Source of the DNA: Adineta vaga
Taxonomy: Eukaryota; Animalia; Rotifera
Reading direction: 5' to 3'
Length of the DNA: 64,000 nt
Assembly: GCA_021613535.1 (NCBI GenBank)
Contig: CP075492.1
Coordinates: 744,001-808,000, forward strand
The first letter of the stretch is position 1. Each line of letters opens with the position of its first letter. Positions 2,142 to 64,000 of the stretch are shown here, in pieces. The notes under the pieces are model-generated. The model saw nothing but the letters and a program-made list of their open reading frames with translations, was not told the origin of the DNA and made no database searches. Position numbers and translations under genes: made by a program.

Positions 2142-2368
2142 CTCAAATGAACAAAGAAAATAAATAAGTAGCGCTTGAGGATGTGAATGAAAAATAATTA
2201 CCATAGGCACATCCTCACCCTCTAGTACAAAACAGAATACATTTTGTTTATCGTAGACCTGTGAAGATTTTCATTGTCCCTGTCATTAATCTTTGTTTAT
2301 TCGATGATGTTCATAATAAGCTACATAAAGATTTCCCAGTTGATCAAAACACATTCTTCTAGCTACAT

Positions 2369-2494
2369 CAAGGATGTGGGTTTGGATATGAGTGAGATTG
2401 ATCAATAAATATATATCACTCACACCCACACCCACACCCTCAAGATGGTGTGAGTGGATGAGATTGTGGTTATGCTCTTAACCCACACCCTCAA
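2369..2494. repeat. Two tandem telomere-repeat palindromic mini-elements
   Basis: AGGATGTGGG...CACACCCACACCCACACCCTCAAGATGG, followed by a second copy ending ACCCACACCCTCAAGATGG. A degenerate copy also lies at ~2174-2223. Confidence 0.75.
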
Positions 2495-2777
2495 GATGGT
2501 ACATCACCATCATTGATTAAAATTCAATATCAACAGCCAATTTCAATCGACGTATCATCAAGCAATCTAGATGCTTATGTATTCTCTACTAATCGACTTG
2601 ATCCAAGTTATATGACTAATACCAACTATATCTCTGATCGATTTCTTCGCATCAGAATGATTCATTTCAACGGAACAGTAATGGAATGATCTTAACATAT
2701 ATTTCTGAATTTATTAATAAGATTGTTATACTATCACGGAACAATTTTTGCATTTGGGGTTTACTAATTAATGGTAA

Positions 2778-3160
2778 TCAATTTGAGCACAAACCTTTCA
2801 AACAAAACATGCAGAAACAACAGAATATACAAAAACCGACCATTGTTCCTATAACAATTCCAACAATTGCTCCGACTGAAAGTGATTTATTCGATTCACT
2901 TGTATCTGCTCTTGATTCTTTTGCTTGAATATAATTATCATTCAATGTCCAATTGATTGTTTGATTCAATGTCGTTGTCTCAGACGTGTTCAGAATAGAG
3001 TCAACTTCTATTGATGTTGGATATAGTGCATTAGCGGCGGCATATTTATGAAAACATAAAAGACCTGCAAATAAAACAAAATATTTGAAAGAATATCAAA
3101 CAAAAGTGAATCTTGGCTATCACTTGCCGCCAAAAGAAAAAGTATTGTTAAAAACTGCAT
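2778..3160 (-). CDS. Small single-pass membrane protein with Cys-rich juxtamembrane tail
   Basis: Signal-like MQFLTILFLLAAS, an intron ending TTTGCAG (~3065), a S/T-rich ectodomain, TM SVGAIVGIVIGTMVGFCIF and tail CCFCMFC. Confidence 0.6.
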
Positions 3161-3769
3161 TTCTTGTGTTTCGTTGTATAAAAATATGACTATTGAAATT
3201 CTTCTCAGATTAACATACATTATATACACATACATGCGATGATTTATTATTGGAAGTTTCCAATTTTACAAGAAGCAATAAACTTCATATCCCATTTATG
3301 ATTTGCAATAAATCACAATGTATTATCATCACGGAAGTATTTTAGACAGTATAAACCAAGATTATTCAAAGTATTTCTTAGAAAATATTACACATTGCAT
3401 AATATTTATCGCTGATAGTCAAAATGTAGATGTTTCTGTTTTCTCTTCACCTAAACTCCACATCCTCACAAAATCGTTCGACGAAATATTCGACGTTATC
3501 TATTGACTCAGTATACTGAAAATAATGTATGATTTATTACTCGTAAAAATCGCAGTTATAACCTGTAACGGTTAAATCTATTCATAGATATTAGCAATAA
3601 ATTGTGAAGAACAAAAGCACATGATGAATGTATTATTATTATAAACATACATTACTGATGTATTTTAAAGAAAAAACAAGAAAATTATTCTATTTTTCCT
3701 TCTGATTAAAAGAAAAAAAATCTTATTTTTTAAATAAAATTAGTTCAATAGTTTATTTTAAATGTCTTC

Positions 3770-4100
3770 CTAGGTTTGTTCGCCTATTGGTAAATTACAA
3801 CGAGGACATCCTGGGCACTGTTTTCCATTGATTGTTTCCAGAGTTTGTTGAAGATTTTCACATTCCATTGCTGGACACAAAATATGTGGACATGGAGAAA
3901 TCTATTCAAAGAAAACTATAGAATTCAATTGAAATAAAAAAGAAAGAGAATTTACTGTTTTAATATCTACATTTGAGGGTTCATCAGTTGAAATATCCGA
4001 TGCTATACAAATCAAATTTATATAATGAATTTATTTCTTGTACAATAATTACCAGGTACACTATACTCATCTCTTTCATACACTTTTTGCGGTACACATC
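3770..4100 (-). pseudogene. Cys-rich small protein, 3' exons only
   Basis: Last exon 3901-3770 translates ISPCPHILCPAMECENLQQTLETINGKQCPGCPRCNLPIGEQT*. Two short upstream GT-AG introns; the 5' end is not resolved. Confidence 0.45.
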
Positions 4101-4414
4101 ACTTTCGGATGAAATCCGAAGTTTTCGCATTTATTCTTTGTGAAATTAATTTGACTTTAAAAACTGTATGTTGTTTTTATTATTTAATTGAATAAATCAC
4201 AAGACATCGACAAACAGCGAGTGAGACACGAATAACAAAATAGAAAGCGAATGTCTGTTGATAGATGACTATGATATAAAAGCAAATGTTCCTTTACAAA
4301 AAAAATGTTCTTCACATACAAAAGGCACAGAGTTACAACATCGACTTAGAAAATGATAATCATTTAACCACAAAATATTGTCGATAGATATCTTCTACTC
4401 AATTAAATTGTATG

Positions 4415-7400: not shown

Positions 7401-10400
7401 GCATTATGATACCATTGGGTCATGATACAGTTCGATTCATCCGTGTTATTATCCATATCGGGTATACTTTCAATAATCCCATTGCAAATGTGACCAAAAG
7501 TCAAGTTGAAATAAGGTGGCTCATGACGGTAGATCCGACATTTATCGGAATCTACGTTCTCGCATGAATAACGATGGAAAGTACCTTCATCACTTCCATC
7601 GACGCAATTCCACTAGAACAGTGCACAAGTTTTGGATTATACTTTAAGACAAAAATGATGGCAGACTACACAAGAAACATCAAAAGGAAAATAATTGTTT
7701 CAATTTGATTTAAAACTCATGCAACTGAAAATTCCCCCAACTATCTTCGATATCGGCATTCCTTGCAAACAATTCTCCCAACAAATTCTAATATCGTGTA
7801 TACTACGTTGTGTTTTTTTTCTTATTTTGTATGAATCTTCGAGTGTGTAAAGTAGAAGTTTGATATATTTGATCCAGTACAGTATACAGTATAATGTCTC
7901 TATAGTGGTCACCCAAGGGCCATTTCAAAGTGTACACACTATACGAAGGTGTTCACATAGGGAGATTATACTGTATCTTTATTCATTCTTTTTATCATAT
8001 TATCATAATTTTCTAGCATTGAGCCTGTAGTTTTGGCGTTTTCTTAATTTGAGTCCGAAAGATAATCTAGTGGTTCTTGAACGAGAAAAGTTACTATAAA
8101 ACTTATGAATAGTCTTGCAAAAGTTCTTCCAAAACTTGTGCTGAAAATAATAGCCTCAGTTCAGCTACAATTCAGTTTCATGCATTCTAAGTGATCTTCA
8201 AAAACCGGTTTGAAATCACTTGTATAGATTATAAACAAAACCGTATTTACGCAGTAGAGACGAAAGCTATAGGAAAAATTTTCACCGAGAACAGGACGGA
8301 ATAGTTGTAAAACAAACGATAACCCAGGAAGATCCCCAAATCTGGAATTGATAATACCAGTAGCTAGAGCTCGTTGAGTCAAATCTCTTCACCAATCGAT
8401 TGACCGATTCACCTTCGGTACATATCGAAAATCTTAGATTTACATATGATAATCTAGGAAAAAATAGAAGGGATCTAGTTTCTCGACTTTTAACCTCACC
8501 ATTGGTTATATATCAATTATATATGTCAAACAAACTATGCGTAAAATTGAAAAATTAGATCCCTTCTATTTTTCTTAGGATATAACATATAAATCTAGGA
8601 TTTTCGATATGTATCTAAGGTGAGTAGATCAATCGATTTGTGAGGAGATTTGCTCTTCGTATATTGGAAAGAAGAATATTCATCAGCGAGTCTTTTTTTA
8701 CCCATTTTTGGATCTCCGTGGATCTTTGTAGAATCTGCTCAACGGACTCTATCTATTGGTATTAACAATTCCCAATTTGGGTATCATTGTGAGTCTTCGC
8801 TTGTTTTACAAATACTCGACAACCACCAGAAAAATTTCACTTTGCAGCTCCCTAAACGGCGCCTGTTTCCATCCATTGGAAATAAATCTTAAAAGAAAAA
8901 GATAACTTTTCTCTATCGGTTTCATTATCGTAGCCTTAACAAAATAATTCAGACAGGCAAACAAATAATTTGGTCGTCGTTTATTGGTATTTTTCGAGCT
9001 CTAGATTAATTTAGCCCGATAACCTGTTATCAATTTAGTAGCTGTTCATTTTGTTCATTGGGATATGAGATCTCATTGTACTATGTATACATACAGGTTA
9101 ACTGACACCGACGGTGTCGGCTTAGTCAGTGACAGTTCTTCGGTATTTGCACTGGGACTGCACATTCCTACATTAAGATGAACTGATCACTCAGAAATCA
9201 ATTTGAAAATAGATTTTAGTAAAATCAACAACAGAAGCACTATTCAAAGACTGATCGTTTCAGCAAAAATAATCTGTTTCCAGTCTCACACTTCGACCTG
9301 ATAAATACTCACGATTTTATTGTCGATGGCCGATGTATGAATACACCTTGCTCCACTATCGCATCTATATCTAGAAGGTAAATTTAACAAACATGTGTTT
9401 GTTTGATGTTCGTCTTCGCCATTTGCACAATCGTATTTACCATCAGAAAGTCGATGGCGCGAGATAGAAGTTATATTATCATGGCATTGAAACAATGCAG
9501 ATTGATTACCACTAGCATGTGGAGAATAGATAAGTGCGCAAGAGTGCACCAAGCGTTTGACATCTTTAATCATAGCAGCGAAATTATCGTATGTTTGGTT
9601 CGTCAATGTGTCAAATGTTCGACATAATAAACCATGAAGCCAAAATAAGTTTATCGTATTCTGACTCTTAGCGAGATATGGGCATATAGTCTCATTGAAA
9701 CAGATCGATACTGGCGTGTTATTATTATATGTGAGAACTACGTGTGCAAAAAGAATGAATGTTGACGATGGCATTTGTTTTAAGTAAAGAATATCTCGTG
9801 GATATCTAGGACAGCCATCTATTGTACTTGGCCCATCATAACAGTATCCATCACCGCACGAAAATTCTGATCGGTAACATAATCGGTCTTCACAGGCATG
9901 ACTAATTCGATCGCTGCAGTCGTATGTTTCCCCTGGTATTTCATCAGATCCATCCATACAGTCGAACTCACCATCAAAGTGAAACACTTTGTCAATACAT
10001 AGTCCATTTAAACAACGAAATTCCGTTATAGGATCGCATTCATTATACTCAAGTGCATCGCATTGATATTCATCCAACCCATTGGCACAATCGATTTTAC
10101 CTATGAAAATATTTTTACCGTCAGCTATCTGTATTTGGATCTCGAATATTCATTCTACGAGATCAAAAGATGATGGAAACTTCGCATATAGATGAGATCT
10201 GTCTGGGCAGAAAAAATGTCTCATTTCGATGTGTGTTGCAAAATAGCGACAATTTAATGGCAAGGTAATATCTCGGTAAGGATGCATTTGTTCTGTCTCA
10301 AATTCAGGGAAGTTTCTAATATTTATAAGACCTATCTATGGATGAAAATTTAGTTCGTTATTTGATCATTCAGGTATTCAGAAGAATCTTATAGTCATAA

Positions 10401-12432
10401 GCCAAAATCCAGTAATCGTGTGTACGCATGTTCTGCCAAAAAGCGATTGGACACAGGAAAACGCACTCTCATGAGCAGAGATGTGAGGTTTACAGACAGG
10501 CGGAGGCGCAGAAGGGGTATTTTCACAGCTACTAAGGGTGAGAGTGTGAGTGAGCGCGTTGGTCAAGGTATCTCTTCTTCACCCACACCTTCAACTCGGA
10601 ATCGAAACAGTTGTTTTTCAAAGCTAACTGGTGTATTCTGTAGACTATCCCTAAGGTTATAAAATCTTTACTCGAAGTTTTCCTAAGAGAAGTGACAGTT
10701 TTGTTAGCACTGTGACAGAGTATGTCTGAGCAACTGAAAAAACACTCGTATAACCTAGTGAGAAGTTCCTAACCAATTTCAAAGTATACAAATGCTTCTT
10801 CAGACTCGCTAGATTATGATGTAATAAAAATTTCTTTTTTCAAAACTTTATGTGACCACCACATAGCCAATTTTCTGAAGATATTTTACCATTTATATGA
10901 CTTGTGTCACATACAGCTCTCCTTTAGCTTTATCCGAATGGGATGAAATTTTTACCACAGAAACTTTGAAATATTCTCTATGCAAGCCGACAAGAATTTT
11001 GAAAAACATGTCTTTTCAAAATCTTTTTCGACTTCGCTCGATGTAGTATCGGCTGTTTTTATTTTTGATCTTTCCATCCCCACTTATAGATTTTCTAAAA
11101 TTGAGAAATCTTGTTTTCGAGAATCTTTTTCGTAGTTTTGATATTAAGACTAAAGTAAAGGATATTTTGGAAAACGGTCAAAACCACATCTGGATAATAG
11201 ATAAAAGTATCACTGCTAAAAATTTTAGCTCTATTGGACAAAGATAAAGGGGAGTTTTGGGTGTCCTAACTTTCGATGAAGAATCTGCTAAGCACAAACA
11301 AAAAGTTCTTAAAAATAGTTTTCTTTGACGTTAAACGTTGATAAACGTCTCAAAGAAATTCAACAACACGTTCAATCGAGACAGTTCAAACGTCGGTCCG
11401 AACATTAACCTATAGCTTATGTATGGCACAAATAAAAATTTTTTTTTTTCAAATTTAGCCTAAGAAAAAGAAAGATGGTGGGGCCCTTAAGGACTATCTA
11501 GAATATGATCTCTTAGTGATGGGAAATCACCTTTAACTTACAGTTATAATATCAGATCTTTGGTAATCTAAATGGCTAACTTCATAAAAGAAGTACTATT
11601 TCTCGAAAACAAAAGTACTTTTTGGAGTTTAATCAAAATTTTTCGGGCTGGTAAATCCGAATCTATACGATTTTTAAAAATTCGTGGTATCTTTATTTTC
11701 AAGAAATAGTCTTTTCTTAATGAAAATCTCAAGATCGAAAAACTTTTGATCAAACTTTTCATTACGTTTTACTCGATATCTAGTAACATAAATGTGGGTA
11801 AAGCTAACTTTCGTCCCCTAAAGAAAAGAACTCATTTACTCACCATCACATATTTCCCGCCAATCTAAGCATAAGACGGATTGACATTCGCCACCATTCA
11901 GCTCATAACATGTGCCGTTTGTGATCGAAAAGATATTATCCGGTACTTCATATCTGTCTTCAAGCCGGTCCAAGATGAAATCCATTGGTTCACTATCGGA
12001 ATCATATGCATACTCACAGTTGCTTCCGAACCATACATTGCCTTGATTCGAACAATTGACAAACAATCCAGTCTCACTACCCGATTCATATTCTTCGATT
12101 ACATCGAATGGCGCATACCACTCGAACAGCTCTCTAGCCGAGATGTTCATTTCATGCATATATTTAAATTGGAGTGGTACACCATTGACTATATTTTCAT
12201 TAGACATCAGGAGTTGGTTGTTCTTACTTGTAGGCCAACGACAATAGTAATGAGTTTCATAAGTTGGAGTCTCGTGATGTGTTACTAGAGCTGATCTAAA
12301 TACGTGCATAAACTTGAAACAATCAAAAGCAGCATTATTTCGGCAACGTATTGTATTATACAGTCGAATATTAACTGAATTTACGGACGAAACGCACCAA
12401 TAAAATAATAAAAGAAGAATACCCAGCAACAT
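4415..12432 (-). CDS. LDLa/EGF-repeat ectodomain 7TM GPCR, ~1524 aa; exons 12432-11844, 10100-9313, 7612-4415
   Basis: Signal peptide, many LDLa motifs (CxxGxCI...DCxDGSDE), EGF motifs and a C-terminal 7TM with ER at TM3. Splice sites GTGAGT/TTTCATAG and GTGAGT/TTCTAG give a continuous frame (589+788+3198 nt). Confidence 0.9.
8260..8850. mobile_element. Diverged foldback/MITE in GPCR intron 2
   Basis: 8330-8480 (…AAATAGAAGGGATCTA) is an imperfect reverse complement of 8555-8810 (TAGATCCCTTCTATTT…). Confidence 0.65.
10534..10593. repeat. Telomere-repeat palindromic mini-element (degenerate)
   Basis: AGGGTGAGAGTGTGAGTG...GGTCAAGGTAT...CACCCACACCTTCAA; shares its core with the 13554 copy in reverse orientation. 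Confidence 0.6.
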
Positions 12433-13553
12433 ATGCTTCCTAAAAAAGTGGCTACGCGTAAATGTTGATCAATGCAATAGTTCCATACTCATACTGACAA
12501 GATCTTAGCTTTACACATGAAGAAAAAAGTTTGTTAATTTTCGCCTCTCTTCCTTTGTTGATTATGTTAAAAGAAAGCCAGATGCACCTGTAAATATCAA
12601 ACTACGTCGGCGTTCATTGTTATGTCATTACAAGCTGTTATACCTCAAATAGGATAGTCGACATCAAATTTGTATGTGTCAGTATTCGATTCAAGCTTCG
12701 AAAATTATAACTCGACAAACATTTTGAAAAAATATGGAAACCAATAATAAATATTTTGTCAAAAATATTCTTTATTCTGAATATGCTCGTTGCCATCAAT
12801 TCTAAGAAATTAGATTTTGAAAACTTCAATATTAGTTTTCATAATCGATGTACACGTTAAGAGTAGCAATTCACTTTTACTTTTTGAAAAAAGTAAATAG
12901 ATAAAGTGTAACAGAAAATACTTCAGATCGATGAATATAAATCACTAGAGGAGAAATGGCTTAAAGCGCTCGGATAACACAGAAACGTAATGATTTATTG
13001 AATGATAATAATAAGATACATAACATAAAATAACAATAATTATATTGAATTAACACGGCATGAATAGTAAAAAGATTTTGCTCGTATACATATACTTTTT
13101 CTGTACAAACTTCATGTTCAGACTCTTTTTCTGTTTTCGAGTCTCGATGCAGAATGACGTCCCTTAAGAATAGTCTTCATCTTGTTTTTAATACGTCTCA
13201 CTAGCACTGAATAGAATTACCAACTACCCGTTTCTCAGAATATATCAGAGAAAGAGAGAGAGCGAGCGAGCGAGCGAGCGAAGAAGAAGGATATTGACAA
13301 AAATGCAACGAGAGAGAATATATATCGAGAGGAAATCGGAAGCAGGAAAAAACGATTATGCATTACTGAAATGAACAAGAGAGGTTTCATTCAAAAGGAT
13401 GTCCATCATTTCTCTTGGTACACCTTGGCCTCTAATTGAGACGCGCTCCCAAATGACTATAGAGCTTAATGTATACGATAACAGAATGAGCGCAAAAAAA
13501 TAGCGTATATATTTAGGGTCGAAGAAAGAACATAAGAAACAAGAGAGAGTTTG

Positions 13554-13601
13554 ATCTTGAGGGTGTGGGTGTGGGTATAGCTTGACCCACACCCTCAAGA
13601 T
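13554..13601. repeat. Telomere-repeat palindromic mini-element (near-perfect)
   Basis: ATCTTGAGGGTGTGGGT-GTGGGTATAGCTTG-ACCCACACCCTCAAGAT: a perfect 17-bp inverted repeat. Confidence 0.9.
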
Positions 13602-14001
13602 GCAAATTGACGAAATTTCGTAATGTAGCATATGCCATGGATTACTCGGGTTCTACAAAAGCGAACTTCATGAAATTTTTACAAGTAATGATAAAAATGT
13701 CATGACCATCTCTTTTGATATCGAAGAGATATGTATTTAACAAGTTAAAAAAATGAAATTCTGTAACGCTTGGCCGTGCCGATACACATATAATATATAT
13801 ATATACTCTGGTCTTTGTAGTAGAAGTCAAAACCGATCATTTTAAGTTAACACACCCTCAAAATTCTATAAAGTATATTTTTTGTATTAATACCTTTAGA
13901 TAAACAAAATAAAAATAATTATGAGAAAATCTTATTAAGGTTAACTATTTACATCGATATAATGATATTCATTTCTTGATAATTGATATATAATAAATAT
14001 T

Positions 14002-14985
14002 TCAAAGCCATTGATAAGAATTAAGTGAAATATGCGTGAGTGATGCATATAGATTTTTCCAAGTTTGTGAAGCACGTAATACTGCTAAAATATTAGTACT
14101 TCTGCTCATATTATCAAATGAATCATCCCAGTTTTGTCCCGTAAGAGGTAAAAGATATGGATTACCAATATAAAAACAATCATACCCAAAATTATTCAAC
14201 ATTTGTACAAATGATTTTACTGTATGAGTTCTAGCTAGAACCGAACGATCATCTAGCCATGTACCACCAGTTTCAAATAAAAACAATGGATATATTGCAG
14301 CATTTACTGTTAAATTCATACCTAGAATGACTTCTGGTTCGAACCCTTCGACATCTATTTTAACGAAAGATATTGGTGTTTTTATATTATTGATTTTAAT
14401 AAATTCGGGTAATGTACTAATTGGAACTTCTCCTATCAATTTAAAATTTGATTTTAAACCTTTTCCTAACGTTGACGCTGCTCCAGGTTGATTCGGTACA
14501 TGTGTATAAATTGGAAATCGACCAGATCGATCACTAATACCAATATTATAAAGAAAATGTTTATCATTTGGTTGTTTTCGCAAAGATATCGATCGATTTT
14601 TCATCAATTGAAATAATGAGTCAACAGGTTCTAAAGAATATACAACATATGGGATCTTATGTACTGTACTTAAGATTATTTCACTAAATTGTCCAATATT
14701 TGCTTCAAATTCTATTATAATTATTTCTCCTTTAGTTGGAACCAAAATAGTGCTTAAGATGGGAAAGAAAAATATATCATCTTGATTTGCAAAATTCTTC
14801 TTTTTTTTCCAATATTGAACACCAAATGTTTTATTATATACATCTAAATTCAATGTAGATACAGGATCAGCATTGTTAATTGATAGATTTTTCAATGGTA
14901 CGAAAAATCTTACACGATACGTCATATATAAACACATAAGAATTCCAACGAGACGACCAGAAAAAAAATGTGCGTATACTTTCAT
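14002..14985 (-). CDS. FkbM-family SAM-dependent methyltransferase with N-terminal membrane anchor, intronless
   Basis: EANIGQFS (degenerate DVGANIG), YSLEPV and FVKIDVEGFEPEVILG motifs. Confidence 0.8.
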   Translation of the reverse strand: MKVYAHFFSGRLVGILMCLYMTYRVRFFVPLKNLSINNADPVSTLNLDVYNKTFGVQYWKKKKNFANQDDIFFFPILSTILVPTKGEIIIIEFEANIGQFSEIILSTVHKIPYVVYSLEPVDSLFQLMKNRSISLRKQPNDKHFLYNIGISDRSGRFPIYTHVPNQPGAASTLGKGLKSNFKLIGEVPISTLPEFIKINNIKTPISFVKIDVEGFEPEVILGMNLTVNAAIYPLFLFETGGTWLDDRSVLARTHTVKSFVQMLNNFGYDCFYIGNPYLLPLTGQNWDDSFDNMSRSTNILAVLRASQTWKNLYASLTHISLNSYQWL

Positions 14986-15766: not shown

Positions 15767-15958
15767 TAGGATCCAGTGGGATCAAGGTTTTTTGTCCTGG
15801 TCACGATCGTCGCCTCATTGGAAGAAAGCCGTCCCGATCCCATTTCCGTTAAAATATTTTCTCGAGATCTTGGAAGTGATATCGCCTTTTACGAACAAAA
15901 TGTACCCTGCTCCTGATAATATATCATCTCGGAATCGGGATAGTTTCGCTAGATCCTA
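15767..15958. mobile_element. hAT-like MITE nested in a telomere-repeat element (~15726-15977)
   Basis: Termini TAGGATCCAG/CTAGATCCTA and internal GGGATC/ATCCC repeats. Flanked by GTGTGGG on the left and ACCCACTCACACTCTCAA on the right. Confidence 0.5.
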
Positions 15959-16056
15959 ACCCACTCACACTCTCAATATATAGATTTTATTCGTATTTAT
16001 TTGAGATAAATGTATAAAAAAAAAGAAGAAAATAATGTTCAATACAAAATTTGCTG

Positions 16057-19449: not shown

Positions 19450-20088
19450 TTATTCACTATTGTTCTGTTGTTGCATCCTCTTTCCAAGTCGAATTTGATA
19501 TAATTTCATTAAAGTTTTCACAAATATATCAACACTTTCTTGAGTACTTCGATGACTGACGATACATACACGAATATAGAGACGATTTCGAATACGACTG
19601 GTTGAAGAATAAACAATGCCTGATCGTTGCATATCATCAGAAAGATTAATATTAAATATAACAATTAATTCATGATTATTCTTATTCAATTCATCAGGTT
19701 CTAATCGAAAATTATCAACATTCAATGTAACAGGATAAATAATACGAATAATTTGTTTATATTTCTCTAATAATGATACTAAATATTGTGTTTGTTGACA
19801 ATTATCAGCAATCATTTTTCCTTTTTTAATAAAACCATGTTCTTGAAGTGCACGACATGAACGAGATAATTCAGGACTTAATTGAGTAAATGGAAGAGCA
19901 TCATTTGTAGGATCTTTTCTAACAATAGCTAAAATTGATTGTTTCATTGAGAAAGTCAATTGAAGATCAAGACTATTACGAATAAGTATACAACCAACAT
20001 CATATAGACAATGAAACCATTTATGAAAATCAAATGCAAGTGAATCTGCTTGATCAATACCTTTAACTATATGACAACGTTGACGATC
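19450..20088 (-). pseudogene. Group II PLP-dependent (aromatic amino acid-type) decarboxylase, C-terminal fragment
   Basis: The frame upstream of the listed ORF reads GIDQADSLAFDFHKWFHCLYDVGC (PLP Lys); also ELSR and RVCIVSHRST. The N-terminal part is missing and cut at the repeat at 20089. Confidence 0.8.
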
Positions 20089-20133
20089 GAGGATGTGGGT
20101 GTGGGTATTCTTCTTATTCTCATGCCCATCCTC
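20089..20133. repeat. Telomere-repeat palindromic mini-element
   Basis: GAGGATGTGGGTGTGGGTATTCTTCTTATTCTCATGCCCATCCTC; approximately the reverse complement of the 49668 copy. Confidence 0.75.
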
Positions 20134-20146
20134 CAGATTAATCTTC

Positions 20147-21460: not shown

Positions 21461-21524
21461 TAATAATCTAATTATTTTCATCAATATGAGATACATATAT
21501 ATAAGATTGTTGAGTTAACTCTAC

Positions 21525-21839: not shown

Positions 21840-21891
21840 ACTCATCACGAATATTCTTTAACTAAAACTATTAAATACATTTTCAATCGAT

Positions 21892-22994: not shown

Positions 22995-23480
22995 TAGAGA
23001 AAATTAAATAAAAATAAATAGTGGTGTTTAATGAGTTGATCGAGATGTAAGATAATCCTGTAAAGATAGCAGATAGATTGCACAGATAGAACACATATTA
23101 GAAATGATGCAGCATAACAATGGTGAATTATTTATTTTTAAAATCGTTTATAACCACGATCTGAATATATCGCGGTTTCAGGCGGTAAAATAAACCTAAT
23201 AAAAGGTCTAACTTTTGCGGTGCAATTAAACCGTTAAGATGAATGTTTTTCTGCATCATGATTTACTGCGATTTTGATCAGAAAACTTTTCCGTGGGATA
23301 ATTTGAATGTTTGATATTGGGTCGAATGATAAGTTAGTCAGTTCGTATTTCAGTTTGTTACATATTTTAAATTTCTTCGTTGAGTTTTGTTCATTCATTT
23401 GTATGTTTTCTTTTGGTCAATTATTCTCCTCTATATATAACTAGGTAACTATCTATATCCACACCCACACCCTTCTCGAT

Positions 23481-24200
23481 ATGTATAATTATTATTATAA
23501 TAAAACCAATTATAACGCATCGAAAAATTATGAAAATAACACTACATGGTTTAAGGACCATAGTATTTTAGCGAAAATTCGTCAAAATTTACGACACTTT
23601 ATAGAATTTGCAAGAGCAAACAACGTTAAAAATGGAAGAATAAAATTTATTGTTGGTGAAGCATATCCAATTGACGGTGTCAAAAGCACTGACCTTATTC
23701 TATATGATGATGGTTCAGAAAAGATAGACTTTATTATACCAAGTAAACCAAATGTACCATAATCGAAAGCTATTGGAGAGAATAATGGCACGCTGAAGTG
23801 GACAGATGAAGTTAGTGGAAACGAAGAGATAACTCAATACAAAGTAATGTATAAAAGATACAAGTGAACAAAAAGAAGAATGGAATGAAGTTTATACAAA
23901 TGCGTTTAACTCATTTGTTTTTATCTAGTTTCACTCGCATAAAATAAAACGCAACGTGATGTCATAGTATTACGTAAACAAAATGCTCAAATTGTGCTTG
24001 ATATGAACGATTTACAATTATTAAATATAACTTGGCATTTTAATGGAATTCCTGTGGTATCCTCAAAAAAATATCAGATGAAATCCAAAATCATTCTTAA
24101 TATAAATAACACATTTTTTAATGATTCTGGGATATATAGTGCTATCATTTCGAATGGTGTCCAAAAATTTCAAGTTCCTATCAAATTAATCGTCAGAGGT
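23481..24200 (+). pseudogene. Fragment of a stonustoxin/neoverrucotoxin-like protein with FN3 and Ig domains
   Basis: WF...RQNLRHFIEFARAN...KFIV...LILYDDG...PSKP, then FN3-like LKW...ITQYKVMY after a stop at 23760, then an Ig exon (ITWHFNG...DSGIY). Starts abruptly after CCACACCCACACCC. Confidence 0.55.
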
Positions 24201-31650: not shown

Positions 31651-31702
31651 TATACAGTCTACTGATAAGTCGCATTTTCGTCCTTCTCGTCTATTGTTTA
31701 CT

Positions 31703-31785
31703 TTGAGGGTGTGGGTGTGGGTGGGGTGTAGGTAGGTGCTACATCTATCTAAAACCCACACCCACACCCACACCCACACCCTCAA
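31703..31785. repeat. Telomere-repeat palindromic mini-element (longest clean copy)
   Basis: TTGAGGGTGTGGGTGTGGGTGGGGTGT-core-A(CCCACA)4CCCTCAA. Confidence 0.9.
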
Positions 31786-31906
31786 TAAATCTGATGGTTC
31801 TCAAGAAATATCGAATGACAGAAAGAACAAGAGTTTTATTCTGAGCTGGATTAATCGACGTATTTTCAGATGAGATTCTAAGTAAAGTGAAGAAAGAATT
31901 GAACAA

Positions 31907-32440
31907 ATGAATAGACCAACAGGTGTTATCTTTGACAAAGAAAATAATTCACTGATCGTTGCTGATATAGGGAACAGACGAGTGTTTCGTTGGTCGTTGA
32001 AGAAAGCTCAACGAGAAATTCTCATTGAAAATTTCGGGTCCTACAGCTTAGCAAAAGATCAGTATGGATTTCTTTATGCTTCATATTCTAAGAACGATGA
32101 AGTAAGAAAATGGAAAATTGGAGAAGAAACGGATAAAGAAGGTATTTTAGTAGCTGGAGGAAATGCACAAGGAGATAATCTAAATCAATTGTATAATCCT
32201 GTGGGATTGATTGTTGATCCTTTAGGTCGCCAAATTTATATTGCAGATTATGGAAATGATCGAATAATGCGTTGGTGTGATGGAGATAAAGAAGGTAAAA
32301 TAGTTGTTGGTGGAAATGAGAAAGGAGATGCGCCAAATCAATTAAGTTGCCCTATTGGTTTATCATTGGATTTTGAAGGAAATCTTTATGTTGTTGATCA
32401 TGAAAATCATCGAATCCAACGATTTTATGTAATTTCTTAA
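31907..32440 (+). pseudogene. NHL-repeat protein, 5'-truncated
   Basis: NHL repeats (QLYNPVGL, IYIADYGNDRI, LYVVDHENHRI); the sequence starts mid-repeat. Confidence 0.75.
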
Positions 32441-32855
32441 TTGAAACTTTTTTTTCTTTTAGTTCAGAAATAAAATTTCCTTTAATCTCATTGAAGAATA
32501 CAAATCAAAGAGATCATAAATAAATGGAAGATCATCAATCAATTGTCCACAACCAATAATCTGTTAACAAATATTTTCCCTATATAACATAATTTATCCG
32601 AATTCAAAGATCAAAACATGGTAAATCTTGAGAATGAAGGTGTGAGCATCAATTCTAGTCACATACTCTCACTCTATGTGTTGATAAGATAGGTTTATTT
32701 AATTTTCAAACATTCTCAAGAAATAAAAATAAATAGTGTGATGAATTTTTTTCTGCTTTTATCAGGTACCTAATTTAGCCTTGACAAACATGAGTTTATC
32801 ATATATTATTTATATTCTATCTATTTTTTTTCAACAAGAATATAATAAACAGAGC

Positions 32856-49660: not shown

Positions 49661-49667
49661 CGCATAG

Positions 49668-49722
49668 AGAGGGTGTGGGTGTGGATGAAAGTAGGAAGAA
49701 TACCCACACCTACACCCACACA
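49668..49722. repeat. Telomere-repeat palindromic mini-element
   Basis: GAGGGTGTGGGTGTGGATG-core-ACCCACACCTACACCCACAC. Confidence 0.8.
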
Positions 49723-49959
49723 CGTACATAAGACATATATAAAAGAACACAAAGAGAAGAAAAGAAAAGTTAGAGATAACAAAGTATTAGCTGTTATCGC
49801 TAACACAAATTTTTTTCATTCTTCTTTTCTTTTTCTTTACGCGTGTCAGCATTCACCAATACGACAGTTTTTCTTTCTTTCTTTTCTTTTGAAGAAGAAC
49901 AAACATGTTATTTCATATTTTCGCTTCGTTATTTTGTCAGCTACTCGTTCGCTCACAAA

Positions 49960-50210: not shown

Positions 50211-50763
50211 CTCACAAAGGCATCTTATCCATTTTTAGTTAGAAATCGTAAGAAACAACATGACTCATTTTATCTGTTTAACTACAAAAGTATATAGAAA
50301 AAGAACAGGTTCGTAGCGGCAGTACCACAGAAAGTAAGTCGACAGCTCACCTCTAGAACAGTGGATTGAGGAGACAGTAAACTCTTATTGTTAGCCTTTC
50401 AAAGTAGTATAGTTTAACAGGAAAAATGCGGGTTAAAAGGAAAGTTAACAAAGAACTCTAGGCAGACAATAAAAAAAAACAACTTCTTATCAGACTCGGC
50501 TCCAAGCCTTGCTCAAAATAAGTTTGTTTACGAACTTACTTCATAACAGCTGCCATATGCGCACTTGGTAAAATTTTGAAACTGTATTATTTGTCATTTT
50601 ATCTTCTATTATACAGCTTCATTCATATTTATTACTGCACGATCGTCTGCAGTAACCATCGAACAAAGAATTTTCAGCTATAAAAAACTACATACACAAA
50701 CGCCACACTCCAAGGTCGACGCCGAGGTGCATAACGTCCAGTCGGTTCTTCAAGAATACACCA

Positions 50764-52026
50764 ATGTCGAAATTTAACATCCTCATATCCGGTTCCGGTA
50801 TCGCTGGTGGTGTCTTTGCATCCTGGCTGCTCCGTGCCTACCCCAAAGCCAACATCACCATAGTTGAGCGCGCTCCTTCACTCCGTCTGACTGGTGCCAG
50901 CGTCGACATACGCAGCACAGCCGTGGACGTCATCAAATGGATGGACGCGGAACAGAAGATCCGCAACCACACCACGAAAGAAGAAGGCATTCAATTCGTA
51001 AAAGCAAATGGCAAGGCCATCGCAACATTTGGAGCGACAGGCAGGACAGACATTCAGAGCATCACATCCGAGTTCGAGATCTTCCGCGGAGAGCTTGCAA
51101 AGATCTTCATCGATCCAGTCATCAAACGGGTAAAATTCATCTTTGATGAGTCAATCGACAGCTTTGACCAGCGTGGCGACGAAGTGGTCGTCACCTTCGC
51201 GAAGAGCAAGGAAGTGAAGACGTACGACCTTCTCGTGGCCGCAGATGGCCTTGGTTCGAATATTCGCGGCATGATGCTAAACAGCAGGCCACGTGAGCAA
51301 ATCTATGACGAGGGCATTCATATAGCATACTTCACCATCAAGAGAGACCTTCTCCAAGGCTGCCGCCTGGCAAAATGGTACAATGCGACAGGTGGACGTT
51401 GTATCTTCTTGCGTCCCGATCCCAATCCAGCTGGCCGCACCAGAGGTCATCTCATGAATATTACCACAAGAAAAGATATTCAAACAAAGGAGAGACTCAA
51501 TGAAGCTATAAGCGAAGGTAACGAAAGCTACATGCAACTGATGGAAGAGATGTTCCATGACGCAGGCTGGCTTGCACCAGAGGTACTGCGAGGCATGCGC
51601 GAAAGCGACGACTTCTACTGCAGTCTGTTTGCACAGGTCAGATCACCGAAAATCTACGATGGTCGCGTGGTCCTACTTGGCGATGCCGGCTACGCTACAT
51701 CCGGCTTTGGCACCAGTCTCGCAATTATGGGCGGTTATGTTCTTGCTGGAGAGTTATTGAATCATCCTGGCGATGTAAAAACAGCCTTGAGACGGTATGA
51801 AGAGCTCATGTTACCGTTTGTAAAGTATTCGCAGAGCACGTTTCCAGCAATGCAGCTGCTCAATCCGCAGACACAGTGGGGCATTAGAATCAGGAATACG
51901 ATTTTAGGTTTCGTGACAAAGACGAAGCTCGATCAATTGGCAATGACTGTATCTTCGGCGCTGGGTTTCTCAGAGAAGAAATTCCCCATGCCTGATTATC
52001 AGTGGCCGGCTAAATCTGAATACTAG
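50764..52026 (+). CDS. FAD-dependent monooxygenase/oxidoreductase (FAD_binding_3/UbiH-like), likely recent horizontal acquisition
   Basis: GSGIAG (Rossmann), DLLVAADG and VLLGDAGY motifs. Intronless, roughly 50% GC against roughly 30% in the surroundings (estimated by eye). Confidence 0.92.
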   Translation: MSKFNILISGSGIAGGVFASWLLRAYPKANITIVERAPSLRLTGASVDIRSTAVDVIKWMDAEQKIRNHTTKEEGIQFVKANGKAIATFGATGRTDIQSITSEFEIFRGELAKIFIDPVIKRVKFIFDESIDSFDQRGDEVVVTFAKSKEVKTYDLLVAADGLGSNIRGMMLNSRPREQIYDEGIHIAYFTIKRDLLQGCRLAKWYNATGGRCIFLRPDPNPAGRTRGHLMNITTRKDIQTKERLNEAISEGNESYMQLMEEMFHDAGWLAPEVLRGMRESDDFYCSLFAQVRSPKIYDGRVVLLGDAGYATSGFGTSLAIMGGYVLAGELLNHPGDVKTALRRYEELMLPFVKYSQSTFPAMQLLNPQTQWGIRIRNTILGFVTKTKLDQLAMTVSSALGFSEKKFPMPDYQWPAKSEY

Positions 52027-53745: not shown

Positions 53746-55039
53746 ATATTATTACAATCACACTGTTTAAAGAAAGAGAAAAAGAAGACGAATATTTTCT
53801 CCTACATTTTGTTTGTATTTATCACTTTGAAAATAGATAGATAAAAGTTTCATGTCTATTAATAAACCGTATTTTGAATAAGTATTAGTAATAACGGCGG
53901 AGTTGACTTTAAAATCAGTAATTGTAATCTTCTTTTTGGTGTCAAAAATACGATTTCATGGTCAGTGTAGATTTGTATCTTTGCTCACACCCTCACCCTC
54001 ACCCCTCAAGGTTTATATAAAGTTGGTTGTTTGAGGGAAAAAACCAATACTTATTTTTTATTTAGCATAAGTATATAAAGACATGTCTTTTCACTATTTT
54101 ATTTCATTTTTACTCTTCAATTTACTCATAACAAAACATTATCAACTCAAGAATTATCGCAGCTACCACTAGTACAGGTGCAGCAAACGCAACAGGTCCT
54201 GTACATAGAGCTCCCATCGCATTATCGCCAAGTAAACTTAATGTTGCTGAAACAGCTTATGAAGCAACAGTAAGAATTAGTGCGACTTTACAAGGTAATT
54301 TGGCAGAAACATTTAAAGCTCCTACAAAATAGGTCGATTTATGTGATAGCAAATAATAATGAACTAATCTCTTTTTTTTCTCTTTACAAATATATTTAAT
54401 CTTGATTTTTATTCTATTTAAAATAAAAGTTTGATGTCAATCATTTGATCGTACAATTAGAAATATCAGTTTTCTTCGTTGGATATGTTAAAATTGGTTG
54501 AGTTTGTTAATCATAAAACTGAGATCTACACTAACACTCACATCCACCCAAAACATGTGAAATATGGGTGTGTCGATGCATATTACCAATATCTTAGTGG
54601 TAACGATAAAGAAGCGTTCTGGTGTTTTTATTTTCATTGCCTAAATGAATTTGATTTTGCGTAAAGATTTATCATCGTTTGTTGTCACTCATAGTGTATT
54701 ACGTTTGTTTTATCTATATAATACTCTAAGCAATTAATGAAAGACAAATGTTTACATCATGAACTGTAATCTCAATAATATCTTATTTTTGATAAGGATA
54801 AAGAGTATATTTTTATTTGAATCGAACACGAACGAACAACACTTATTATTATGGGATGAACTCGCACATACGGTCACCATTGTTTTTTTGTCCTTCTATT
54901 CTTCTCTCTCCATCTCTTGTCATGTTCATATCTTGTCCACCGCTTTGTTCTACTTACATATATATATTTTTTTTTCTCGTTCTCTTCTATTCTTTTCTTT
55001 CGACGACAAGTATATCCCTAACACTAATTTCGCCTTAGG

Positions 55040-55922
55040 ATGACTCGAAATGCTCTTGTTACTGGTGCTGCACGAGGTATTGGACGTGCCATTGCACTTC
55101 GTCTAGCAAAAGATGGCCTAAATGTTGCTGTTAATGATATCAAAGCAAATTCTACTGAATTAGAAGATACACAAAAAGAAATTGAAAAACTTGGTCGACA
55201 ATCAATTTCGATCATAGCCGATGTTTCCGATGAAAAACAAGTACAAACCATGATGAGAACTACAGCAAAAGAATTGGGTAGTTTGAACGTATGTATACTA
55301 ATCTATGAGCTATTTTGTTATTGTCATGCTTGTTACAACATAGGTAGTTATTGCTAATGCAGGAATTGCTCAAGTAAAACCATTACTTGAAATAACTGTT
55401 GAAGATTGGGATAAAGTATTCGGTGTGAATGCTCGTGGTGTTTTTCTTTGTTATCGAGAAGCTGCAAAAGTGATGATTGAACAAGGAAAAGGAGGGAAAA
55501 TTATTGGAGCTTGCAGTGTTTCTGGTTACAAAGCATCTCCAATGTTAAGTCATTATTCTGCTAGCAAATGGAGTGTTCGTGGTCTTACACAAGCAGCAGC
55601 AATGGAATTAGCGCAATATAAGATTACTGTCAATGCTTATTGTCCTGGTATGTTTTTAGAGAATGTGAAATATTTAGTTAGAGATTGAATTTTAGGAATT
55701 GTTGGTACAGCAATGTGGGATTTAATTGATGAAAAATTAGCTAAATATGAAAACAAAGAAAAAGGAAAAGTGATTGAAGAGTATTCAAGTAGACTTATTG
55801 CTCTTGGTCGAACTAGTGTTCCTGAAGATGTGGCAAATTTTGTTTCCTATTTAGCTAGTAAAGATTCAGATTATATGACTGGACAAAGTATTATGATCGA
55901 TGGTGGAATACAATTTTCTTAA
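55040..55922 (+). CDS. SDR, acetoin(diacetyl) reductase/2,3-butanediol dehydrogenase-like, 259 aa; exons 55040-55288, 55344-55647, 55696-55922
   Basis: [29 protein letters not shown] and [12 protein letters not shown]; two GT-AG introns (55 and 48 bp) give an intact frame. Confidence 0.92.
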
Positions 55923-56154: not shown

Positions 56155-56378
56155 AGCTTTATATTGCTAGAAAATGGGGTATGTGTGGCCTTACTCAAGC
56201 AGTTGCAATGGAATTAGGAAAATACAATATTAAAGTAAATGCTTGTTGTCCTGATAAGTTACAGAATACAACAAAAGATGAAATGATGAAGAACCTCTCT
56301 CAAATCGCGGCTCTCGGTTGCATTGCTATTCCAAAAGATGTAGCAAATTTTGTTTCGTTTTTAGCTAATAGCGATTGA
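56155..56378 (+). pseudogene. Partial tandem duplicate of the SDR
   Basis: GLTQAVAMELGKYNIKVNACCP...DVANFVSFLA; ends at a telomere-repeat element (56375-56432). Confidence 0.8.
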
Positions 56379-56806
56379 GGGTGAAGATGTGGGTATCTTA
56401 TCTTTCCCCGCATCATCACCCATCCTTACCTCTGCACTTTAGATATTGTCTTTTGTGCATCTCAATATAATGATTGGTGATCATTCTTGGACACTCATGT
56501 TGTTTGTTATAGATGAATTTAAAGTCTTAATTGTTTATATTGAATATTTTTATAAAAAAGAAAATAATCAGGTTAGTAAGAAATTTTCGAAGTTTTTATT
56601 TTATTTTTTTAATTGCATGGAAACATTTAGCTCTCAACAATGTATGCGGCATTACTATCTATGCACATAGTAACAGAACATACACTATTGAAAGTTAATT
56701 GTATTTTTGCAATTAAAAAATAAAAATAAAACTCTGAAAACAGAAACAACAACAACTTTTTACAATACCAATACTTATGTGTTCAATCGTTCATTATAGT
56801 TATCTT

Positions 56807-58880: not shown

Positions 58881-59094
58881 AAATTTAATTGACACATACA
58901 GTTTCTTTTAATTCAATAAATTTTATAAGAGTATAGGTTAGAGTTAGCGAAGACAAAAAGGGTCTGTGTATCCACATCTTAATATTTAAGTTAGATGTCA
59001 CCTATATTAAACAGAAGAATGCAAATGATTGGCATATCAAACTATATCCTTTATTTGTCATTGTTATATAAGAACAAATACATCATTCAATTCA

Positions 59095-60764: not shown

Positions 60765-61025
60765 AATTTATAAATATATTATCATTTACCAACGTATTTC
60801 TAATCTTTATATTGAAATAGACCTAATGTCACGTATGTGATGCTATGTACATTTTTATAATGTACAGGACAAATGAATGGGTTAAAAAAACATCATTGTT
60901 CTTTTTTTAGAAGAAATGGAAAGAAATTTCGTAGAATATCAGATAAGCGAAAAACATAATTTGTACTTTGTATTTCTATTTCATCTCATTAAACTAACAT
61001 ATAAAAAAACACTATAACTATTGTG

Positions 61026-61387
61026 ATGCCTCGCAAACCTCAAGTTGAATATCAAAAAAAGAAAGATGCAAAAATAGAGGTAATTGAAATGATTTCTTGA
61101 TCACAATTGTTTTAAAATATACAGATTGACTCCGTATTTTCTAACTTGACGAACTAAAAGCTCCTGAGAAACAACTAGATGAAGCTTTAGCAAAGGGTAA
61201 AAACGCTTTAGATAATAAGGAAGTATATGAAGAAAACAAAAAAGCAGATGCTGTTGAAGATGATTTGGAAGATCTCCGAGAAGAGATAAAACAAGTTAAA
61301 GAAGAAGGTGGTATTGAATCAACAGAAGAAAAATCACCAGAACCAGAATATCTTTTGAAGCAACAAAAATATCTTATTTTTTTGTGA
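61026..61387 (+). pseudogene. Small charged coiled-coil-like gene fragment
   Basis: MPRKPQVEYQKKKDAKIE, a GT-AG intron, then an E/K-rich frame with a frameshift. Confidence 0.3.
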
Positions 61388-62679
61388 TTTATTAGCAGAT
61401 GTAGAACACAGTCAATTAAATAAGACTAAAGTTTATTGAAAAAAGAACTGAGTAAAATTCTATCAAAGCGGTTATAGATGAGAATATATATGTATTATTC
61501 TATAGTCTATGCACTCATCCTCAAGACCGTTCAAACTATTCATAGATATTTTTATTCAAAAATGTATGTTTCAGATACCATAGAAAGAAGAAAATCTTTT
61601 TTCATTTTGTTTGTGTTCAGTTTGAATACAGCGATATTGAAGATATTAATTATTATAATCAATATAACATAGTATGCGAATAGCTTCTTTGTTACACATC
61701 TATGCTTCAAATAATACACAATAAACTTAATTTTCATATAGATGAAAGTAGCATTGATGTATGAATGTTCTTTTTATAAGCTGAGGATGAGAGTGTTATT
61801 AATTTCAAAAACGAATTTTTAATTGAATCATTAGTTTTCATTTTGTAAACTGTAAACATTTTTTGTGTATTAAAACAACGTTTTTTTTATCAAGATATGG
61901 TCGTATATAAATGACAATATACTGAAGTTTTATTTGAAAAACAAAAAAAAAACATTTTTTACATATTATACTACAAAGTCGGTGCAGAATTACCTTGGTG
62001 TAAGTAAATATTTATTTACAAGAACAGGAAAAAAAGAACGTTAAATATATCCCTGTATAATAGAAGAAAGTAATCTACGTATTCATTTAATAAAAGTAAG
62101 TAAAGATCTTCGTATTTAATGACGATCAAAGACATATTGTATCATACGAAATATAATAAAATCTATCGAGTATTTAACCATAGAATAATCATTAGATCAC
62201 TTATCTAGTTTTTTTTCTTATGAGAACTTTATTAAAAAAAACAAATCTTAATGTTTTCTTAAAAGTACCAGAATCCTTTTATACAGTTACCTATACGGTA
62301 TACCTTTTAATTAGACCGAAAAACAACAATATTATAATAGGATATGAGTTTTCTTTTACTTTTGTACACAGTCCCACGAATTACAAAAAGATCGGGTAGC
62401 ATTTTTCAACATTCGAGCAAATGATGGTTTTTGAATATAAATTTATAAGCAAGGAAGGAAAGCAAAAGCTTTAACCTTTCAAAAGTCTTTGAAAATAGAT
62501 TTAATCTCGCTTTTCTCCCTATAATACAAGTCGTAAAATACTGAATTTGCCACACAAAACATTGATTATTTTTATTGTATACTGTTTTATAAAAGTTTGT
62601 ACTTTTCATAGTTAAACTTAATTAACAATATTATGGTATTCTTTCAAAGCAAAACGTAAACAAACTTAGTATTTATTCC

Positions 62680-64000
62680 ATGTCTTCAAGCGAATCAGAA
62701 ACAACAGAAGATGAATGGTTGTCAAATAGTGATTACAAAGAATTGTTCGCAGATTCAGATGAGAGACATCTATGGAATAGAAGTGATGATAACAAAGATC
62801 TGTACAACAGAATATCAATGAAATATGAAAGGATTAATCTTGAACATTATCAATTAATTTGGTGTGATGATGAAACAGATATATCCACTAATAAGATTTT
62901 AATCGATCAATTACGAAAAATCATTGATTATACACTATTATTTCATGATGTCATCGAATGTAAAAATTTTCTGAAGCAGACAAAAGATGTTGATACATTT
63001 CTTATTTGTTCCTGTCAATTTGCCAAAAAATTTATATCAAAAGTTCATAAAATGAATCATATTAAATGTATCTATGTTATTCATTATCATGGGCGATTCC
63101 AGAATACTTTAATCACTAACTTTTCTAAGGTATGTTTGCTCGATAACATTTTATTCGTTTTAACAAAAACGAACCCATAGCGATTTTTCTGTCCCAGCTA
63201 TATTCCTAAAAGGAAAATATTTCATTTTTTTGTGGATGAGTTTGAGACTAAGTGCGTAGATGTGGGTGACAGAGAGGGTATCGATGATGGTTTGGATGTA
63301 TATGTGTTCCTCATTATTTGAACTCGGCCTCATCGAAACCGGTACCGTCAAAGTGTCATTTCTGTCTTGAGCCAATTGTATTCTATAGACTCAAAGTGAA
63401 GGACATTTTTTAAAGGACATTCGTTTACGTCTTCGACGAGATTATGTCATGAACGAAATTGTTGAATAGAAATTACGTCAACACTTTTTTATTATCCTTT
63501 TGTTACTTATTATTGTTAGGTAAAAGAAATCAAAGCTACAGATTTCAATTGTTTATTAAACTATCTTAGCAAAGACGTCGAAAATTGTTTACAACAGGCA
63601 AGAAATGATCTTTTCAGTGAACCTACTCGAAGTAATTATACAACCAATGGTGATTATTGTTCATGGTGGTGCATATTCGTTGATATGATTTGTTATTTAC
63701 CTTATTCAGATCAATGTCGCGAAAGATTTATTGAAATTTTCGAAAATTATTATCAAAATAATGAAACAAATATGAAAACATTAAAATTATTCAAAGAAAC
63801 ATATACATCTGAAAGTGCTCTAACATGGTATACACGTAATACATTTCTTTTTCGTATTCTGAATAACATACTTCGACAACATAATATTTCAATGACATTT
63901 ACTTTTGGTTTCTTTATACAAGATTTGTTTAATCAGTTAAAAAAAGAATATGAAAATTTCAAATGTAATCATTTAAATCAATCAACTATGAAAGTTTATC
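62680..64000 (+). CDS. ART-type (NAD:arginine ADP-ribosyltransferase-like) family protein, N-terminal part, runs off the window
   Basis: Exon 1 YQLIWCD...LRKIIDYT..FLICS..IYV. The later exon has ALTWYTRNTFLFRILNNILR...FFIQDL, typical of the region preceding the ART domain. Confidence 0.75.

Follow-up and report, generated by a model that had tools for sequence, protein, structure and literature searches.

It remains open how bdelloid rotifers repair germ-line breaks caused by desiccation or radiation and how they incorporate foreign genes. Homologous repair is traceless. A 64,000-bp stretch of the Adineta vaga genome (assembly GCA_021613535.1, contig CP075492.1, positions 744,001 to 808,000 of the forward strand; here called the window, in whose coordinates all positions are given) carries many short hairpins built from head-to-head telomeric repeats, which raises the question of whether these are mobile elements, functional sites or footprints of such breaks. 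The hairpins lie at joins between unrelated pieces of DNA, and sequence comparison indicates that they are likely repair scars with templated arms. Statements attributed to cited papers are based on excerpts of those papers.

A family of telomeric hairpins

Each hairpin, or foldback, consists of a G arm (TTGAGGG followed by TGTGGG repeats), a short core and a C arm that is the reverse complement of the G arm. As an earlier note on this DNA had stated, both hexamers are repeats reported for bdelloids: every A. vaga scaffold ends in TGTGGG repeats (PMC8494291), and P. roseola has a TGAGGG repeat with TGTGGG as a variant (PMC7943196). Here they occur at internal sites, the identification being made against the published repeats only. 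The arm 16-mer at 13554-13569 was matched 25 times in the window with up to 4 mismatches, compared with 1.65 times in 100 block shuffles. Likewise, an arm profile gave 18 matches of at least 15 bits (0.26 expected) and a 15-base arm pattern gave 8 (0.04 expected). The family proposed in the earlier note is thus real, and so is its G-strand-then-C-strand orientation: with overlapping matches inside one element counted separately, a G arm was followed by a C arm within 130 bp 6 times at up to 4 mismatches and the reverse order was found 0 times, as were pairs in the shuffles; at up to 5 mismatches the counts were 14 and 2.

Nineteen of the 22 positions listed earlier had an arm scoring above 98.9% of the unlisted window stretches, a null that was built without the listed sites and flatters them somewhat. 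In the same site-by-site comparison 58925 and 63230 passed weakly, 15726 and 25640 were marginal (4%) and the arm at 54535 was unsupported (12%). Overall, the 64 kb hold approximately 12 G-arm-then-C-arm pairs of 45 to 95 bases and 6 single arms. Clear pairs are those at 2174, 2369, 2446, 10534, 13554, 30718, 31703, 49668 and 58115; at 20089, 32624 and 56375 the G arm is strong and the C arm weak. Lone C arms occur at 3450, 13850, 23455, 53985, 61510 and 15964, the last of which had been overlooked. The hairpins are as follows, with the strand in parentheses where one applies and the supporting evidence at the end of the line.

2169..2230: degenerate foldback, its G arm preceding the C arm, located 28 bp past a G protein-coupled receptor (GPCR)-like open reading frame (ORF)
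2362..2449: foldback with the longest intact C arm; DNA hairpin z score -3.1
2430..2449 (+): longest shared arm motif, ACCCACACCCTCAAGATGGT; as RNA, the inferred template (10 nt) plus 3' flank (10 nt)
2437..2500: second foldback, abutting that at 2362..2449 (tandem scar); profile and arm alignment
3456..3469 (+): single degenerate C arm; site-by-site score
10533..10600: foldback, with 297 other bases replacing 10541-10592 in a diverged copy; profile and contig comparison
13551..13604: young, perfect foldback; 16-mer matches, z -7.7
13848..13866 (+): single C arm; 16-mer and profile
15958..15981 (+): single C arm absent from the earlier list, with a weak G-like stretch at 15723-15746; profile
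20086..20141: foldback whose outer G arm coincides with decarboxylase codons I-L-D; homolog alignments
23458..23481 (+): single C arm; profile and site score
30716..30803: older degenerate foldback; z +0.5
31697..31791: young foldback, whose C arm has four repeats and ends at a cut NHL gene; z -10
32622..32682: degenerate foldback, with a further inverted outer-arm copy ending near 32725; profile
49661..49727: foldback with a core in common with that at 20089; profile and core comparison
53984..54037: C arm with TGAGGG-type repeats and a short G-arm start 25 bp later; profile and site score
56375..56425: degenerate foldback at the end of a partial dehydrogenase copy; profile and site score
58112..58185: foldback, both arms with CACC for CATC; 16-mer and arm alignment
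58925..58983: weak candidate pair; site score
61512..61529 (+): single C arm; 16-mer and profile
63230..63356: weak candidate within a predicted intron, possibly due to chance; site score

Arms hold 1 to 4.7 repeats, and the number differs between the arms of an element. In an alignment of 34 arms (17 pairs, 12 from the window and 5 from metagenome loci), the TTGAGGGTGTGGGT columns were kept in 25 to 32 arms; outward of them ATC was kept in 17 or 18 and ACC in 11 to 13, and inward conservation faded past the first repeat, all of these values being inflated by the placement of arms on these very columns. With automatic anchors, 32 of 55 arm substitutions were G to A. Among six copies folded as DNA, the young ones formed strong hairpins (z -7.7 and -10) and the old ones did not (z -1.2 and +0.5). 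None of 17 copies lay inside a long ORF or exon, sequence that makes up 43% of the window when cut genes are delimited at the arms. Purging of such deletions from working genes would produce this pattern. The hairpins are likely inert records, rather than functional RNA or transposons, that decay mostly by G-to-A change.

Some elements show further order. A GAGGAT variant of the first repeat recurs at 2177, 2370, 3459, 20090 and 61512 and may come from a site prone to mutation or from a second version of the template. At 2437-2449 and 53984-54037 a C arm is followed by a new G arm, either at once or within 25 bases, and the same tandem order was found in one contig of another locus. Such tandem scars may be scars that broke again or tiny fragments capped at both ends.

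Junctions with native DNA

The unbroken state could be inferred at four loci, giving five junctions, with paralogs or homologous proteins as references and not strict empty alleles. The genes concerned are as follows.

19456..20094 (-): 3' part of a pyridoxal phosphate (PLP)-dependent decarboxylase gene, cut at codons I-L-D; homologs, the first 250-330 codons not being in the window
31781..32440 (+): NHL-repeat pseudogene starting at codons L-N within the outer C-arm end; upstream part not in 30000-31750
55040..55922 (+): intact putative short-chain dehydrogenase (SDR) gene, assigned by sequence motifs; unbroken reference
56159..56375 (+): partial dehydrogenase copy ending at a G arm, its 3' tail not resuming; comparison with 55040..55922

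The conserved decarboxylase codons I-L-D are also the outer G arm of the foldback at 20089, and the N-terminal 250 to 330 residues were absent from the whole window, with 0 of 24 homologs matching there. Homology to NHL proteins begins at 31781 with codons L-N, and these form the outer five bases of the 31703 C arm; among 442 alignments of 120 homologs, 20 began at 31780-31799 and none lay wholly left of 31750, the pseudogene being frameshifted and its first residues aligning weakly. The partial dehydrogenase copy tracks its intact neighbour up to GATT, where the arm starts, and its 3' tail did not resume past the 56375 foldback (score 17, null mean 21). At 10534, a contig approximately 88 to 90% alike shares DNA up to 10540 and again from 10593, with 297 other letters between, and another haplotype spans the foldback. 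Judging from homologs or the intact copy, the three broken genes (PLP decarboxylase, NHL and SDR) appear to stop exactly at an arm.

Native ends and arm motif overlapped in register by 3, 5, 2, 6 and 2 bases at the five junctions. Against a null of random blunt joins (mean, 0.66 bases), the sum of 18 had a P value of 0.0004, a cautious sum of 12 had a P value of 0.002 and the three genes alone had a P value of 0.001. The native flank resumed past the element at none of the four testable loci. Deletion, filler and microhomology, the marks of break repair, were thus found relative to an unbroken reference at four loci and five junctions. Together, the cut genes, the in-register microhomology and the flanks that do not resume favour the suggestion of the earlier note that the elements are double-strand-break repair scars. 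No cut coding sequence was recognised at the 49668 and 25640 junctions, and at 63230 the sole homolog found splices across the site.

Ragged outer ends

The outer ends of the hairpins vary over approximately 8 bases in the window, in metagenome contigs and in contigs of sequencing runs. Among the best six matches per run, contigs leave otherwise perfect arms at 2446, 2447 and 2449 and enter them at 13557 and 13558, in groups of 8 to 15, with runs X1, X3 and X4 showing the same joints and so not being independent. Run X1 contigs among the matches listed ended at 2446 (10 contigs), 2449 (15) and 13558 (9), and genome-wide contigs had loose ends at 2446 (7), 2448 (2) and 2449 (3). Their summed depth falls stepwise over 2442-2451, from 28085 at 2442-43 through 25551, 16064 and 6570 to 823 at 2450-51, a fall to which contig branching contributes. 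Letters beyond GATGGT disagree between copies. There was no excess of target-site duplications, the longest flanking direct repeat averaging 3.0 bases compared with 3.17 in permuted pairs (17 elements). The termini are therefore not fixed, contrary to the earlier note, which had taken fixed termini as a sign of a mobile or templated insert; the templated part of that description holds for the arms.

Proposed template-primed break repair

Any explanation has to account for the fact that the G arm always comes first, outer ends are ragged, all five testable junctions overlap in register, intervening DNA is lost and target sites are not duplicated. A left G arm and a right C arm are expected if both 3' ends of a break are given the G strand and then joined. 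Similarly, ends that prime at various points of one template would share a fixed lead-in but differ in where it starts, and would overlap it by a few bases. By analogy with the rare head-to-head TERC-ITSs of vertebrates (telomeric tracts described below), that template is probably telomerase RNA. On this view, the RNA segment immediately 3' of the template would anneal to a few bases of a broken 3' end, which would then be extended through the lead-in (TTGAGGG/ATCTTGAGGG) into TGAGGG and one to four TGTGGG repeats before being joined to the other end via a short filler. Single arms would be breaks extended at one end only, and the scars would arise in the germ line. We infer the copying of RNA, its identity as telomerase RNA, the independent synthesis of both arms and closure by end joining.

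The predicted RNA reads 5'-ACCCACACCC-UCAAGAUGGU-3', which corresponds to a template-side DNA motif of (ACCATCT)TGAGGG-TGTGGG-T. Written as RNA, 2430-2449 would comprise a template of 10 bases, made up of one repeat and an alignment region of 4 bases, and a 10-base 3' flank; the predicted flank after the template is UCAAGAUGG, and the predicted template and flank together are ACCCACACCCTCAAGATGG. A first pass would copy TGAGGG and then TGTGGG, and later passes TGTGGG alone, the TGAGGG of the first repeat representing alignment region plus flank that is copied on the first pass only. In its full form, the proposal is that end joining routinely heals germ-line breaks in bdelloids, both ends having received a few repeats from a reverse transcriptase that writes telomeres and is primed on the 3' flank of its RNA, and that the scars spell 5'-ACCCACACCCUCAAGAUGGU-3' of an undescribed rotifer telomerase RNA. 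We put this forward tentatively, with slightly less than an even chance of being correct in all its parts.

Several points weigh against this proposal. At the PLP decarboxylase and NHL junctions the native DNA was inferred from amino acids, and overlap lengths were read by eye. At 10534 the direction of change rests on parsimony, and the 297 letters themselves were not inspected. A clean single-break empty allele was not seen in the contigs compared. Microhomology would also be expected if later deletions had joined genes to existing arms, a mimic that would need to strike the outer 10 bases in five of five cases. The preference of arm ends for GGGT is weak (6 of 17 young arms; P = 0.05 to 0.23), and independent fillers do not predict the core shared by 20089 and 49668. 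Furthermore, rotifer telomerase RNA was not found by literature search, by Rfam scan of the window or in RNA-labelled runs.

The arms of one element also shared more variant letters than arms of different elements (27 and 14.9, respectively; P = 5e-5) in an initial test with hand-set anchors, which again speaks against independent synthesis. This effect was weakened by controls: P rose to 0.03 when age was considered, to 0.08 when anchors were set automatically and to 0.5 when 6 pairs were dropped and the 11 clearest kept. A snap-back origin, in which one arm is copied off the other, was considered and rejected, as the flanks past the motif are not mirrored (0.23 within and 0.28 between elements) and the symmetry fades with the controls.

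The gene encoding the protein component is in dispute. Bdelloid TERT genes were reportedly cloned in 2007. As far as excerpts of the paper go, Lai et al. did not identify TERT in A. vaga (PMC5405514), which counts against telomerase and in favour of a transposon-type writer. A 2025 review, in its excerpted part, does not list rotifers among possible telomerase losses (PMC12133305). Should Adineta really lack TERT, the repeats would be written by an enzyme of transposon type in the role of telomerase.

Other explanations

The alternative that survives best is that the scars are copied from DNA: microhomology would let a broken end invade an existing foldback, and arm, core and second arm would be copied together before the end is joined to the other, so that the family propagates through repair. 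This would explain the ragged, microhomology-bearing ends equally well and requires no TERT. It would also explain the common core of 20089 and 49668, which agree at 14 of 18 bases when one of them is reversed (P = 0.0014 by comparison with shuffled cores). Several cores, moreover, begin with AT and pyrimidines, and similar pyrimidine-rich core starts occur at other loci. However, most cores are unrelated, the next-best pair matching at 12 of 18 bases compared with a mean null maximum of 10.2, and the cores listed for other loci are likewise dissimilar. The 13554 and 10534 cores, which had been proposed as a second shared pair, were outside the top six pairs among the 19 arm tails compared. 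Nor does DNA copying account for unequal repeat numbers between arms or for the constancy of the 20-base lead-in across samples, and we consider it unlikely. The shared core could arise if copying ran past the 5' boundary of the template, if a whole donor was copied or if extra repeats decayed in parallel.

Slightly less likely still is that the same scars were written by the reverse transcriptase of Athena/Terminon, endonuclease-deficient Penelope-like elements, using their own or another small RNA with C-rich telomeric repeats. Terminons attach to ends via (ACACCC)n or (TCACCC)n at the RNA 3' end (PMC6431247), Athena fragments have been reported at breakpoints in A. vaga lines (PMC13564844) and a short aborted copy could yield a shared core after the G repeats. 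In Terminons, though, element sequence follows the G repeats, whereas here fixed letters precede them, and the cores are just 10 to 50 bases long. An Rfam scan of the window gave 0 matches, hammerhead ribozymes included, and no Athena or reverse transcriptase ORF was present among the 18 ORFs scanned.

The earlier note had also raised miniature inverted-repeat transposable elements (MITEs) mimicking telomeres. Like MITEs and foldback elements, the hairpins are short, non-coding and dispersed, with inverted arms that share an outer motif; variant letters are common to both arms of some copies (58115), and genuine elements with long terminal inverted repeats lie nearby (20144-20622). These features would be accounted for if the hairpins were an old MITE family whose terminal inverted repeats are ACCATCTTGAGGG and whose subterminal repeats resemble telomeres, with later deletions having truncated the genes beside them. 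Unlike such elements, the hairpins lack fixed ends, with perfect arms ending at differing letters, and they lack target-site duplications, a conserved interior and contiguous flanks. Single arms are common, and all five testable junctions are without a full terminus and without target continuation. The MITE explanation is improbable and is largely refuted here.

Least probable are functional sites under selection (telomere-protein or transcription-factor binding sites, or hairpins in untranslated regions), which would fit the several copies located less than 200 bp from gene ends and the foldback contigs in two RNA-labelled runs but not the presence of all decay stages, the predominance of G-to-A change, the loss of folding in older copies, the three genes cut in two or the absence of one copy from a diverged copy of its own locus (10534). 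An interstitial telomeric sequence (ITS) left by end-to-end fusion was also rejected, as long head-to-head arrays with subtelomeric flanks were not encountered: arms hold few repeats and the flanks are ordinary genes.

Relation to known systems

Template-primed repair of the kind proposed for these hairpins would work like that of type C TERC-ITSs. For those of Xenopus, Sola et al. (2021) propose copying next to the template, with a second enzyme at the other end (PMC8537989). The tracts at the type C locus of Xenopus laevis and at two head-to-head mouse lemur loci are likewise short, head to head and located at a repaired break, with a lead-in from just 3' of the template, microhomology, and deletion or filler (PMC8537989). 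In vertebrates, however, 3 of 41 loci are head to head (PMC8537989), whereas in the window this arrangement is the rule, and the bdelloid hairpins have a lead-in on both arms and a predicted template RNA where the vertebrate RNA is known. By this analogy, the hairpins would belong to a known kind, TERC-ITS-like tracts, and what appears new is dense paired foldbacks with the lead-in on both arms.

Telomeric repeats have been reported at deletion breakpoints in some A. vaga lines (PMC13564844). These neotelomeres, considered transient, share animal group and repeat with the hairpins and are likewise added at breaks, but they are described as single capped ends in a few laboratory lines (PMC13564844), and hairpins that are paired, fixed and dispersed, or a template flank, do not appear in the excerpted text. 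Cancer neotelomeres and arm fusions also show short tracts, 0 to 3 nt of microhomology and short non-telomeric fillers; they differ in being somatic, hundreds of bases long and mostly of one tract, with telomere capture favoured and no template-flank lead-in in the excerpted text (Tan et al. 2024, PMC11293586). Athena/Terminon elements share RNA-templated addition at DNA ends via C-rich telomeric repeats, and their copies are often cut by short telomeric stretches; unlike the hairpins, they span kilobases, code for proteins, carry a 3' hammerhead and have element sequence after the G repeats (PMC6431247, PMC5537684).

No published description of these hairpins or of rotifer telomerase RNA was found by a literature search that omitted most subscription papers and the original Athena/Terminon papers, and excerpts of PMC5718144 contained nothing relevant. 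An earlier survey of more than 1 Mb of gene-rich DNA did not, in its excerpted part, see end-joining footprints (PMC2861651). If the proposed origin is true, the hairpins could be counted and dated as footprints of a non-homologous repair route, and the scars would map past breakage gene by gene. They also provide a 20-base probe for rotifer telomerase RNA, of interest because it is disputed whether Adineta has telomerase.

Occurrence outside the window

The exact two-arm pattern was found in three AT-rich metagenome contigs with unrelated cores and different outer ends, two of which carry a second, decayed copy. A 60-base single-arm probe matched 97 contigs in run X1, whose contig depth is not copy number; 23 of these run into other sequence, which places young arms at many other loci. 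RNA-labelled runs X18 and X19 contained one foldback contig each and no telomerase RNA-like contig, the shortest piece placed being 23 bases, so that a 20-base match could be missed. Viral contigs gave 0 matches to the two-arm pattern. Bacterial genomes (Azospirillum and cyanobacteria) gave three, all GC-rich perfect stems with loops of 6 to 14 bases, which, judged by eye, are probably unrelated palindromes. These stems (L004:2001-2040, L005:2001-2032 and L006:2001-2035) have identical 13-base arms and GC-rich loops, and two are cyanobacterial.

Gene content and neighbouring elements

The window has a G+C content of 32% and contains NHL-repeat, low-density lipoprotein (LDL)-receptor/GPCR, SecA-like and bacterial-type enzyme genes, with closest protein relatives in Rotaria, Adineta and Didymodactylos, which mark it as bdelloid; the protein family scan covered 18 of the 24 ORFs of at least 150 amino acids. 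Bacterial-type genes encode an FkbM methyltransferase (14002-14997), the PLP decarboxylase (19456-20094), a sialate esterase (33116-33595) and a flavin adenine dinucleotide (FAD) monooxygenase (50656-52026). Their clustering with several broken genes resembles the dynamic, foreign-gene-rich regions of bdelloid genomes. At 39255-49116, a SecA-like ORF of 2,146 amino acids occurs with a DEAH-type helicase fragment that has an internal deletion.

A 1,401-bp segment (17429-18830) is skipped by contigs in all four DNA runs compared, a presence/absence difference between haplotypes or copies. At 9037-9168, diverged copies carry 66 other bases, a foldback-sized length, in place of 132, and at 14740-14805 they skip 66 bases. 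None of the datasets listed as covering 9000-18900 was labelled as RNA.

Other dispersed elements are also present. A near-perfect palindromic element of 480 bp (20144-20622; 94.6% self-complementary), with ends AGAGACGTC, adjoins the 20089 foldback. The C arm at 13850 was considered as the edge of a replaced haplotype block, which was not supported: the sequence of the other haplotype departs from the window at 12944, and the letters there resemble the terminus of a different element. The first nine of these letters are those of the 20144-20622 element, which suggests a polymorphic insertion of a related MITE. An older intronic palindromic element of approximately 520 bp (8299-8817) is 78% self-complementary, and two more AT-rich inverted-repeat elements occupy 49960-50210 and 56584-56740. 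At 4068-4135, approximately 20 contigs from other loci pile up and all diverge at one position, which marks where another dispersed repeat ends.

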